From: Spirochaetales bacterium
Lineage (GTDB): Bacteria; Spirochaetota; Spirochaetia; UBA9216
Length of the DNA stretch: 64,000 bases
Direction of reading: 5' to 3'
Assembly (NCBI GenBank): GCA_016839055.1
Contig: JAEKNX010000001.1
Location: 303,693 to 367,692 of the forward strand
This document shows positions 30,320 to 31,950 of this stretch, in pieces; the first letter of the stretch is position 1, and each line of letters begins with the position of its first letter. The translations under genes and the position numbers were made by a program. A model generated the notes under the pieces. The model saw nothing but the letters and a program-made list of their open reading frames with translations, ran no database searches and had not been told where the DNA came from.

Positions 30320-31171
30320 TCAGTTTTCTTTATTGAGAAGCTGATCCAGTGAATCATGAGTGCGGTTGAGTGTCGAGGATATAGAGTTGGCATCCTGAAG
30401 TAGACGGAAAACATCTTCAAGTGACTTGAGCCCGTCAGTAATGGCTATCGTCTGTTCCGACACTCCTCCCTTTATCTCTGCCAGCATATAGCCGGAATTC
30501 TCGAGACTTTTTCTGCTCTTATCGAAGTCACGGCTTGTCTCAAGCATGTCCTTCTGGAAATTCTCCAGGAGGACAATAAGATCGTTGAAGCTGCCTCGTA
30601 CCTGCTTGAGCCCGGAGTTGAACTCGTTGATGGATCCGCTTATTGTATTCGCGAAATCCTGAGTCTGTACCGAAAGGCTCCTTATTTCCTTTGCAATGAT
30701 ATTAAATCCCTTGCCCGAGCTTCCTGCGCGTGCTGCCTCAATGGATGCGTTAATAGCAAGGATGTTTGTCTGCTGGGCAACATCATCAATTTCACGTGTC
30801 ATTTCACGCACCTGCGAGGATTTATCCTCGAGTGAAGAAAAAAGGCCGTGGAGCTTCTGTGATTCCTCAGTTGCGTGAGTTATTTCTTCGACATTCTTCT
30901 GAATAGCGGAATTAACAGAAGAGGTCGTCTGGATAATTTCACTCATGCTGCTGTAAATATTTTCGGTGTTTGTGCTTGTACTCTCTGAGGTTGCCCTTAT
31001 TTCTTCAAAACTCGCGACGATCGTCTCTAACGAATTATGAATATTTTGTATCTTTCTCTCTATTATGTTCATGGCACTCTGGGTCACTTTTGAGAGGATT
31101 ATCCCCTTATTATAGCCAATGGTAAGAAGAGACATCGTTTTTTTGAAGAAATTTGATTGTTTATCACTCAT
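30320..31171 (-). CDS. Soluble methyl-accepting chemotaxis protein (signalling domain only)
   Basis: 283 aa, no TM segment. Highly conserved MCP tip [31 protein letters not shown]. Confidence 0.8.
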   Translation of the reverse strand: [283 protein letters not shown]

Positions 31172-31176
31172 ATCCG

Positions 31177-31950
31177 TTACTCGTAAATCTCGTCGATTAT
31201 ATCAATTCCGCATTGAAGGCCTGCGAACCAGTCAAGAAATTTCTTTACATTTTCATCTTTGAATATTGCACCATGTTGGGGCGCAAGATACTTAATATTA
31301 AGACCGTCAAGTTTTGATATCCATTTCTTTGCAGCCTTGTTGGAGGACATGTATCTGCGGTGGAAGCCTTCCATGATCTTTCGATGCTCATCAAAGTCTT
31401 CAACAAAAATATACTGATTTCCCGTAGGAAAGACTGCAGCGCCTATGTCGCTAGTAAATAAAACACAGGAAACCGGATCAAAAAAACTATAGCAGCCTGC
31501 TGAATGCAGAAAATGAGCCGGAATCAGTTTCAAGTCAGTTGATCCGGCAAGTTTTAGACTTCCCCCGAGTCCTTCTATTCCGACTATTCTGTCTTGATTA
31601 ACTATTCCAAAGTGGGGAATGAATCTAAGCCAGAGCTCAGATATGTAGACCTTTGCCTTGGTGACCCCCAGCCAGAGAGCTATTCCGCTTGATACATCCG
31701 GATCCTGGTGGGAAAAAAAGATATTGTCGATCTTATCGAGATCAATATATCTGCTTACAAGGGCTATTACACGTGCAAAAAGATGTATTCCGCCAGGATC
31801 TACCAGGGTCCCGCGGCCGTTGCTTATAATCAGGTATTGATTAGTCTGGACGACGCCTTGTTCTTCGACTTCATCCGCGCCGAGCCAGATGAACTGATGC
31901 CCTCCATCCTGAAAGAGAATTTTACCGTTTATATCATTTGAGTTTATCAA
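31177..31950 (-). CDS. Metallo-beta-lactamase-fold diiron-type protein resembling the flavodiiron N-domain / ODP (oxygen-binding diiron protein) family
   Basis: 257 aa MBL fold. Metal-ligand pattern H-x-D-x-D (SHQDPDV) plus downstream H, D, H (PAHFLHS, TSDIG, APQHG), like FprA/ROO N-domains but without a flavodoxin domain. It is co-oriented 5 nt upstream of the soluble MCP, the arrangement described for ODP-MCP pairs. Confidence 0.55.
   Translation of the reverse strand: MINSNDINGKILFQDGGHQFIWLGADEVEEQGVVQTNQYLIISNGRGTLVDPGGIHLFARVIALVSRYIDLDKIDNIFFSHQDPDVSSGIALWLGVTKAKVYISELWLRFIPHFGIVNQDRIVGIEGLGGSLKLAGSTDLKLIPAHFLHSAGCYSFFDPVSCVLFTSDIGAAVFPTGNQYIFVEDFDEHRKIMEGFHRRYMSSNKAAKKWISKLDGLNIKYLAPQHGAIFKDENVKKFLDWFAGLQCGIDIIDEIYE

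Follow-up and report, generated by a model that had tools for sequence, protein, structure and literature searches.

A predicted cytoplasmic oxygen chemosensor operon encoding an oxygen-binding di-iron protein and a sensor-less chemoreceptor in a Spirochaetales bacterium

The DNA analyzed here, a 64-kb stretch referred to as the window, carries two adjacent genes on its reverse strand, odp and mcp, encoding a 257-amino-acid (aa) metallo-beta-lactamase (MBL)-fold protein and a 283-aa chemoreceptor (MCP), respectively (Table 1). The NCBI record for a protein identical to the former (MBI9105406.1) is labelled "MBL fold metallo-hydrolase," and the mcp product is labelled "hypothetical protein." The first-pass annotation had placed odp 5 nt upstream of mcp and in the same orientation, and this arrangement was confirmed. 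Such a short spacer implies that the two genes would be co-transcribed and are probably also translationally coupled. At homologous odp-mcp loci the spacers were also short, ranging from 3 to 14 nt or giving way to an overlap. An [FeFe] hydrogenase gene precedes odp at a distance of 123 nt, and the end of the hydrogenase operon is marked by an intrinsic terminator comprising an 11-bp stem (8 G-C pairs), a 4-nt loop, and TTTTTT. Since this terminator separates the hydrogenase operon from odp, odp-mcp was considered to be its own transcription unit. A promoter scan of the spacer upstream of odp (31951-32021) found no consensus sigma-70 promoter; the sequence TTGATC-17 nt-TATTAA, spotted by eye, is a weak candidate.

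Table 1. Positions in the window of the odp-mcp genes, their signals and predicted functional residues, and the second MCP
Feature	Position	Strand	Details
mcp ORF, predicted cognate receptor of ODP	30320-31171	-	283 aa, ATG start
Hairpin tip of the 283-aa MCP (residues 136-165), CheA/CheW-binding region of MCPs	30677-30766	-	From alignments
odp-mcp intercistronic spacer	31172-31176	-	5 nt, odp stop to mcp start
odp ORF	31177-31950	-	257 aa, TTG start
odp stop codon	31177-31179	-	TAA
Q225-H226, MBL motif 5	31273-31278	-	Invariant in 50/50; Gln, specific to ODPs, takes the place of the third His that motif 2 lacks
D168, Asp of MBL motif 4	31447-31449	-	Predicted bridging ligand; invariant in 50/50; aligns with the Asp of FDP "lfscD"
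H149, His of MBL motif 3	31504-31506	-	Predicted iron ligand; invariant in 50/50; aligns with the FDP motif-3 His (4dik/1vme)
H81-Q82-D83-P84-D85-V86, ODP-type MBL motif 2	31693-31710	-	Codons; predicted iron ligands H81, D83, D85
Shine-Dalgarno sequence AGGAGG	31956-31961	-	5 nt before the odp TTG; read from the sequence
Intrinsic terminator, end of upstream [FeFe] hydrogenase operon	32016-32047	-	Terminator scan (32022-32047) and sequence
Second MCP, transmembrane, dCache-HAMP	42281-44308		

A Pfam search of the 257-aa protein returned only two matches: the oxygen-binding di-iron protein family (ODP, PF19583) at residues 34 to 227, covering profile positions 1 to 194 of 194 (E value of 6.2e-71; 238.7 bits against a cut-off of 27.2), and Lactamase_B (PF00753) at residues 32 to 226 (E value of 6e-17). 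The protein had previously been described as an MBL-fold protein without a flavodoxin domain, which these matches bear out; the same search revealed no rubredoxin or other domain. The ODP-specific model outscored the generic PF00753 model by 239 to 63 bits. The top PDB matches were both of the solved oxygen-binding di-iron proteins, 6qnm (E value of 2.8e-101, 56% identity) and 6qrq (E value of 1.9e-93, 54% identity), each aligning end to end over approximately 250 residues, and were not hydrolytic MBL enzymes. Flavodiiron proteins (FDPs) in the PDB matched remotely (E values of 5e-5 to 1e-4), and a weak match to NorV was observed (NF008887, E value of 3.6e-5). The lengths of 47 ODP homologues fell mostly between 243 and 274 aa. 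By these sequence comparisons, the 257-aa protein is a clear member of the ODP family. Both a hydrolase and an FDP identity were ruled out by motifs, domain content, and score ranking.

The first-pass annotation had noted that motif 2 reads H-Q-D-P-D-V, had regarded this as a departure from described ODPs, and had raised the possibility of altered metal or ligand specificity. The motif was present as claimed but was not a departure, since 6qnm and 6qrq also read HQDPDV. The H-x-E-x-D-H motif, which is absent from the 257-aa protein, belongs to flavodiiron proteins and not to ODPs. Also absent was the HxHxDH zinc/hydrolase motif, the second and fourth His positions of which are occupied by D83 and V86. 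In an alignment of 50 ODP sequences, including 6qnm, 6qrq, and 47 genomic homologues, residues H81, Q82, D83, P84, D85, H149, D168, Q225, and H226 were identical in all 50, and position 86 was V or I. The sequence APQHG was likewise present in both crystallized ODPs, and the ligand set together with 19 invariant positions was that of the Treponema denticola and Thermotoga maritima ODPs. A motif 2 lacking the third His, with a motif-5 Gln in its place, is presented as a peculiarity of ODPs in a published description (PMC7785958). H-Q-D-P-D-V is the normal ODP signature. Because the predicted metal site is that of the two crystallized ODPs, nothing points to new chemistry; the suggestion of altered specificity was refuted by the invariance of the whole ligand set, and a divergent metal site was ruled out.

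The 283-aa protein matched Pfam MCPsignal (E value of 4.5e-29) and no other domain above the cut-off, the Pfam search detecting no HAMP, ligand-binding, or sensor domain. It has no transmembrane (TM) helix, with a maximum 19-residue Kyte-Doolittle hydropathy of 0.73 compared with 3.8 for the transmembrane dCache-HAMP MCP of the window, in agreement with the earlier description of a TM-less MCP signalling domain. Among known structures, it matched Tm1143 (E value of 1.8e-17) and the soluble receptor 3g67 (E value of 7e-12, residues 54 to 253). In the alignments, its hairpin tip hardly differed from those of Tm1143, Aer, and Tsr; it was >80% conserved across 115 family members, and by sequence the kinase-control tip is canonical. 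A homologue search gave 1,111 matches, and the best 120 of these were, except for one fragment, proteins of 271 to 323 aa without a sensor or TM domain, which describes a large receptor family of MCPsignal-only proteins of approximately 285 aa. TDE2496 of T. denticola was not identifiable among these best 120 of the 1,111.

The strict methylation consensus [ASTG]2-x2-[EQ]2-x2-[ASTG]2 had no match in the 283-aa MCP; near-consensus sites were found at E56-E57 (residues 52 to 61) and E239-Q240 (residues 235 to 244). The sequence FEEIRATS was >80% conserved in the subfamily and lined up with a QQ site in the other MCP of the window that fits the consensus. The N-arm exhibited a 7-residue (one-heptad) gap relative both to Tm1143 and to the transmembrane MCP of the window. 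Because the transmembrane receptor encoded in the same window has an N-arm longer by one heptad, integration of the 283-aa MCP into the same array is not guaranteed.

The arrangement of genes was compared with that of other genomes. The order of odp followed by an mcp of approximately 280 aa was kept in eight loci (L001-L008) from spirochaetes and Fervidobacterium (Thermotogota), and odp-mcp adjacency was also observed in L046-L050. The MCPs paired with odp in other spirochaetes were 37 to 68% identical to the 283-aa MCP, and when distant receptor homologues (38 to 42% identity) were sampled, odp was immediately upstream in three of three. Two gene orders for ODP/MCP operons are mentioned in a published analysis. 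Within approximately 6 kb of odp, neither a hydrogenase nor a GltD-like homologue occurred at any of the 45 genomic ODP loci, among them L001 (76% identical); a hydrogenase 2.8 kb upstream of odp was seen at one distant locus only (L046/L047). With a strong terminator here and no adjacency at the 45 loci, co-transcription of odp with the [FeFe] hydrogenase, or a functional link between them, was rejected as a general feature.

Within the window there were no further ODP or soluble-MCP paralogues, the sole other match being to the tip of the dCache MCP, and there were no cheA, cheW, cheY, cheR, or cheB genes in the 64 kb. The second, transmembrane MCP does point to a chemotactic organism, and the chemotaxis core is assumed to lie elsewhere in the genome. 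The window also encodes the [FeFe] hydrogenase, rubrerythrin, aldehyde:ferredoxin oxidoreductase, and PTB-BUK, so that the predicted gene content of this Spirochaetales MAG is anaerobic and fermentative. Given the gene set of an anaerobe, oxygen sensing for taxis makes sense.

The closest likeness is to the T. denticola ODP (TDE2498; 6qnm/6r9n), a stand-alone MBL-fold protein of approximately 255 aa from a spirochaete host that aligned without gaps over residues 4 to 255, has the same ligands, and is coupled to an MCP without TM or sensor modules. We take 6qnm to be this T. denticola protein, an assignment in keeping with its 68.7% identity to a Treponematales homologue. The differences are the species, here a Spirochaetales MAG of marine or environmental origin, and the identity of only 56%. 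The 283-aa MCP is the putative counterpart of TDE2496 and of Tm14 in T. maritima, its likeness to TDE2496 being one of architecture and of conserved pairing in other spirochaetes. The T. maritima ODP (6qrq/6qwo) also has the same ligand set, the T. maritima receptor Tm14 (3g67/3g6b) differs from the 283-aa MCP by 3 residues in length over the aligned region, and the Fervidobacterium locus (L008) extends the gene order to Thermotogota; T. maritima differs in host phylum and thermal niche, and the similarity of the MCPs is low outside the tip. Flavodiiron proteins (FprA/ROO/NorV; TM0755, PDB 1vme) share with the 257-aa protein an MBL-fold N-domain and a carboxylate/histidine di-iron site, and motifs 3, 4, and 5 (H, D, and H) align. 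However, they are turnover enzymes with H-x-E-x-D-H and a fused flavodoxin domain, whereas the 257-aa protein has H-x-D-x-D-V and Gln225 and lacks that domain; unlike them, it is expected to hold oxygen rather than reduce it. With the hydrolytic enzymes of PF00753 it has the overall fold family in common but not the zinc motif.

Combining family membership, ligand-set identity, an MCP without TM or sensor domains, operon structure, and pairing across lineages, we propose that the bicistronic odp-mcp operon very probably encodes a cytoplasmic chemosensor for O2 (and Fe(II)) used in steering relative to oxygen and iron. In the proposed mechanism, the ODP would assemble a di-iron centre on H81/D83/D85, H149, D168, and Q225/H226, and, once loaded with iron, would hold O2 in a stable peroxo adduct. 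Binding would alter its conformation or oligomeric state, and this change would be passed to the co-expressed sensor-less MCP hairpin, which may join the chemoreceptor arrays of the cell via its conserved tip and there alter the output of the CheA kinase, allowing an anaerobic, fermentative spirochaete to steer relative to oxygen and iron. In the work of Muok et al. 2019, ODP reportedly also mediates iron responses. The work on T. denticola and T. maritima is the source for the binding of iron and O2, a direct ODP-MCP contact, the influence on CheA, and the direction of the behavioural response, all of which are inferred here by analogy. As summarized in the secondary literature, TDE2498 is the O2 sensor for T. 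denticola chemotaxis and is genetically coupled to the sensor-less TDE2496, which modulates CheA; according to the same kind of source, T. denticola has one CheA, and its TDE2496 is believed to be incorporated into membrane arrays. The earlier reading of the pair as an ODP-like di-iron O2 or redox sensor with a soluble MCP thus gained very strong support from the PF19583 match, the two ODP structures, and the conserved pairing, and odp-mcp is an unremarkable, previously unannotated copy of the known two-gene ODP/chemoreceptor module.

Other explanations were considered. The ODP-MCP architecture might be kept here but serve a signal other than O2, namely, NO, H2O2, the redox state of the cell, or solely the availability of Fe(II). 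Such a change of signal would be consistent with the reaction of the di-iron MBL-fold sites of related flavodiiron proteins with both O2 and NO, with the weak NorV match, and with the reported role of ODP in iron responses. However, the argument from a divergent motif is void now that the 257-aa protein has proved to share its ligand set, and also 19 invariant positions, with the T. denticola and T. maritima ODPs, and nothing in its sequence distinguishes it from these proteins, making a different signal improbable. It would be more surprising still if the receptor and ODP formed a separate cytoplasmic chemosensory-like cluster with a non-motility output, e.g., c-di-GMP or gene expression. That the window has no che genes and that the N-arm is one heptad off the membrane MCP would fit such a cluster, as would the recruitment of ODPs to various signal-transduction pathways, which a published analysis describes, but the hairpin tip is canonical and the orthologous pair of T. 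denticola acts, in the secondary accounts, in chemotaxis, with TDE2496 thought to reside in membrane arrays; we regard a non-motility output as very unlikely.

The proposal in which we place the least confidence, considering it extremely unlikely, is that the 257-aa protein has an enzymatic role, as a hydrolase or as a scavenger that reduces O2 or NO to protect the neighbouring O2-labile [FeFe] hydrogenase, its adjacency to an MCP being incidental. Membership of the MBL superfamily and the NCBI label would fit an enzyme, but the HxHxDH motif is missing and there is no flavodoxin or rubredoxin domain for electron delivery. The proximity of the hydrogenase gene, 123 nt away here and 2.8 kb away in L046, is likewise offset by the intervening terminator and by the contrast between hydrogenase adjacency at 0 of 45 genomic ODP loci and MCP adjacency in both groups of loci described above.

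The main value of identifying odp-mcp as a chemosensor operon lies in annotation, as the two genes can confidently be relabelled, odp as an O2/Fe(II) sensor of the ODP type and mcp as the cytoplasmic chemoreceptor cognate to it. The inferred physiology of this uncultured, anaerobic spirochaete thereby gains a capacity for aerotaxis or iron taxis. Understanding of ODP systems is unchanged, because the feature proposed as unusual is the normal signature of the family. We also considered whether the ODP-adjacent receptors of approximately 285 aa constitute a distinct, deeply conserved MCP subfamily with a hairpin whose membrane-distal end bears signature motifs, possibly a surface for ODP docking or transduction. 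This is doubtful, and the motifs may already have been described in the primary ODP paper; if true, docking motifs would open a route, from sequence, to how a sensor-less chemoreceptor is driven by a sensor on a separate protein. In a weaker version, the position of odp-mcp right after the O2-labile hydrogenase operon would reflect a functional link. The motifs conserved in ODP-coupled receptors were G19-Y-N-K22 and F55-EEIRATS62 in the N-terminal part and GL.SLE and LD.LL in the C-terminal part, a minor by-product that could help to direct mutagenesis to the interface between ODP and receptor.

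The 257-aa protein encoded by odp belongs, to judge from its sequence, unambiguously to the family of oxygen-binding di-iron proteins (ODPs). It matched PF19583 ("ODP family beta lactamase") across the full 194-position model with 238.7 bits and an E value of 6.2e-71, and the generic PF00753 (Lactamase_B) with 62.6 bits. These were the only matches in the Pfam scan, which found no flavodoxin domain. Among all PDB chain sequences, the two top matches were both described as "oxygen-binding di-iron protein" (6qnm/6r9n, E value of 2.8e-101, 56% identity to 6qnm; 6qrq/6qwo, E value of 1.9e-93, 54% identity to 6qrq), and their alignments extended over ~250 residues, either ungapped or with a single one-residue gap. 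The next matches were flavodiiron proteins (E values of 5e-5 to 0.07), and the sole NCBIfam match, to flavorubredoxin NorV, was weak (E value of 3.6e-5, far below the cut-off). We take 6qnm to be the Treponema denticola ODP and 6qrq the Thermotoga maritima ODP, which fits their nearest aligned homologues, from Treponematales (68.7%) and Fervidobacterium (67.3%), respectively. The PF19583 match and the ranking of the solved ODP structures ahead of any hydrolytic HxHxDH enzyme thus bear out the ODP-like reading of the first-pass annotation.

That annotation had also set the motif H-Q-D-P-D-V against H-x-E-x-D-H and taken it as a departure from described ODPs and a possible sign of altered specificity. 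Alignment with the solved ODPs refuted this, since both crystallised proteins have the same residues at this position ("shqdpdvssgi" and "thqdpdvtsgi"). The alignment was extended to 50 sequences by adding 47 ODP ORFs to the window protein and the two PDB proteins. The ORFs came from 45 genomic loci, with spirochaetes, Thermotogota, Thermococcus and numerous Proteobacteria represented. H81, Q82, D83, P84, D85, H149, D168, Q225 and H226 did not vary in any sequence, position 86 was always V or I, and P52, G53, H113, V183, D185, H189, F196, H197, G227 and L245 were also invariant. The H-x-E-x-D-H motif is that of the flavodiiron proteins, while HQDPD[V/I] is shared by the ODPs, and a divergent metal site was therefore rejected. 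ODPs are known to lack the third His of motif 2 and to have Gln at motif 5 instead (PMC7785958), which corresponds exactly to V86 and Q225 in the window protein. By its sequence the metal site is therefore canonical for an ODP, and no part of the sequence argues for a different chemistry.

MCPsignal was the sole Pfam match of the 283-aa receptor, which consists of nothing but an MCP hairpin. Its most hydrophobic 19-residue segment had a Kyte-Doolittle mean of 0.73, compared with 3.8 in the window's transmembrane MCP (42281-44308). Residues 136-165, which form the tip, have nearly the same sequence as the tips of Tm1143, Aer and Tsr. Residues 54-253 aligned with the soluble T. maritima receptor 3g67/3g6b with a length difference of only 3 residues (E value of 7e-12). 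Tm1143 and the dCache-HAMP MCP of the window have one heptad more in the N-arm. No strict methylation consensus was found in the receptor; near-consensus sites occur at E56-E57 and at E239-Q240, and in the alignment with the dCache-HAMP MCP the first of them falls on a consensus QQ site. A search of 5.8 billion proteins returned 1111 homologues at E <= 1e-10, of which the best 120 were 271-323 aa long, except for one 178-aa fragment, and none of these 120 had a sensor or transmembrane domain. In an alignment of 115 of them (37-87% identical), the conserved motifs outside the tip, which are specific to the subfamily, were G19-Y-N-K22, F55-EEIRATS62, GL.SLE (247-252) and the C-terminal LD.LL (275-279), all located at the hairpin end farthest from the kinase. 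Each is a candidate position for ODP contact, signal input or adaptation. That they mark the ODP interface of an ODP-coupled receptor subfamily is a speculative and rather unlikely proposal, and the motifs may already have been described in the primary ODP paper.

The features of the locus and its surroundings are listed in the table. No in-frame ATG is available as an alternative to the odp start codon, and the called start puts the N terminus level with those of the crystallised homologues, as query residue 4 aligned with chain residue 3. With a terminator before odp and, after mcp, a convergent gene for a PTB-BUK fusion whose stop is 4 nt from that of mcp, odp-mcp is a self-contained bicistronic unit. 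Coordinates, spacer, domain content and hydropathy together confirmed the descriptive part of the first-pass annotation, namely two co-oriented ORFs 5 nt apart (exactly placed, both on the minus strand), an MBL fold with no flavodoxin domain and a TM-less MCP signalling domain. At NCBI the exact proteins, from a 552,750-bp contig of a Spirochaetales MAG, are labelled "MBL fold metallo-hydrolase" (MBI9105406.1, the ODP) and "hypothetical protein" (MBI9105405.1, the receptor).

Features of the odp-mcp locus and other genes of the window
Feature	Position	Strand	Remarks
odp	31177-31950	-	257-aa ORF, TTG start
mcp	30320-31171	-	283-aa ORF, ATG start
Shine-Dalgarno sequence of odp	31956-31961	-	AGGAGG (perfect), five bases before TTG
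Intercistronic spacer	31172-31176	-	5 nt, odp stop to mcp ATG
Intrinsic terminator	32022-32047	-	between [FeFe] hydrogenase gene and odp; 11-bp stem, 8 G-C pairs, T6 tail
[FeFe] hydrogenase operon	32074-36578	-	directly upstream of odp
Thioredoxin-like [2Fe-2S] protein	36330-36578	-	82 aa; hydrogenase operon
148-aa ORF	35884-36330	-	hydrogenase operon; no Pfam or NCBIfam match
NuoF C-terminal 4Fe-4S region + GltD-like NAD(P)H oxidoreductase fusion	33893-35929	-	678 aa; hydrogenase operon
HydA	32074-33954	-	up to 626 aa; NCBIfam group A6, 766.6 bits vs cut-off 765
PTB-BUK fusion	28108-30315	+	735 aa; phosphotransacetylase/butyrylase domain PTA_PTB (16-348), acetate/butyrate kinase domain (538-702); convergent on mcp
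Signalling cluster	38877-46990	+	HisKA_3 histidine kinase, LuxR-type response regulator, PAS histidine kinase, MCP, PAS-PAS-GGDEF-EAL protein
dCache-HAMP transmembrane MCP	42281-44308	+	three consensus methylation sites
Fe-type alcohol dehydrogenase	152-1312		precedes redox cluster
Anaerobe-type redox cluster	1702-7376	+	rubrerythrin, 4Fe-4S dicluster protein, 705-aa aldehyde:ferredoxin oxidoreductase, FdhD/NarQ, TatC

The pairing of an ODP with a soluble MCP, also proposed in the first-pass annotation, is conserved. An MCP of ~280-290 aa was found directly downstream of the ODP gene, on the same strand, in all eight of the closest ODP loci in the genome collection, seven from spirochaetes (L001-L007, 56-76% ODP identity) and one from Fervidobacterium (L008, 56%). 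Conversely, the ODP gene was directly upstream in 3/3 sampled distant receptor homologues (38-42% identity), taken from three MAGs including ones labelled Clostridia and Competibacteraceae. The gaps were 3-4 nt in L046-L049. In the Competibacteraceae-labelled MAG (L050), the ODP at 2345-3100, which precedes the MCP homologue P0070, was uncalled and was split over two frames in tblastn, one of which gave 180 aa at 63% identity; it is apparently frameshifted, as a pseudogene or by assembly error. In most of the proteobacterial loci (L009-L044), no adjoining MCP was detectable with the window receptor as query, in agreement with the reported recruitment of ODPs to several kinds of signalling pathway, with the ODP and MCP genes in two orders (PMC7319448). 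A tandem pair of ODP paralogues was observed in Oceanospirillum maris and in Marinospirillum celere (L009, 5947-7605, and L011, 5974-7624), with ~45% identity to the window protein for each paralogue and no MCP detectable beside them.

The published ODP mechanism explains odp-mcp best and very probably applies here. The iron-loaded ODP would hold O2 as a stable peroxo adduct, the cognate sensor-less receptor would read the state of the ODP by physical interaction, and the receptor would then alter CheA output and swimming behaviour. Muok et al. reportedly found in 2019 that phospho-CheA is destabilised by peroxo-ODP. In T. denticola, the ODP TDE2498 is the O2 sensor for chemotaxis and shows genetic coupling to TDE2496, a protein that modulates CheA although it has no TM or sensing modules, and deletion of the ODP alters CheA ordering in the arrays (PMC7666581). 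ODP binds iron and oxygen, and its interaction with its receptors is conformation dependent (PMC6978683). The window pair shows every testable defining feature of the TDE2498/TDE2496 and TmODP/Tm14 modules and would be their spirochaete orthologue, an unannotated copy of a known module that holds no surprise for specialists and raises no new question.

The three alternatives are all weak. A signal other than O2, whether NO, H2O2 or iron only, is improbable, as nothing in the sequence supports it after rejection of the motif argument, and an output other than motility is more improbable still. An enzymatic role tied to the adjacent hydrogenase is the least credible, because a terminator separates the hydrogenase gene from odp, the electron-transfer domain is missing and the proximity is not conserved: at none of the 45 ODP loci, the 76%-identical L001 included, was a hydrogenase or GltD-like homologue found within ~6 kb. 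In the Clostridia-labelled MAG (L046/L047), an [FeFe] hydrogenase (1-451) lies ~2.8 kb upstream of the ODP-MCP pair (3208-4909), with two unrelated genes between; as this is the only locus besides the window with a hydrogenase near an ODP, the proximity is probably a coincidence. The HydA family matches start at residue 28, suggesting that the true start is probably M25 (about 33882), which would abolish the 62-nt overlap of the called start with the upstream gene. The PTB-BUK fusion and its convergent position are shared with L001 and L002, the closest relatives (68-69% identity).

No cheA, cheW, cheY, cheR or cheB genes were found within the 64-kb window. Its Fe-type alcohol dehydrogenase, rubrerythrin, aldehyde:ferredoxin oxidoreductase, glycogen metabolism genes, PTB-BUK, [FeFe] hydrogenase and glycine cleavage system make up the gene content of an anaerobic fermenter. 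The sole RNA gene identified (ARAGORN; Rfam at gathering thresholds) was tRNA-Asn (GTT) at 52436-52510(+). Two adjacent proteins of 568 and 1056 aa encoded at 59006-63879(-) each have a PPDK_N (PEP-utilising, ATP-grasp) domain, and the larger has an additional C-terminal nucleotidyltransferase (Pol-beta-like) domain.
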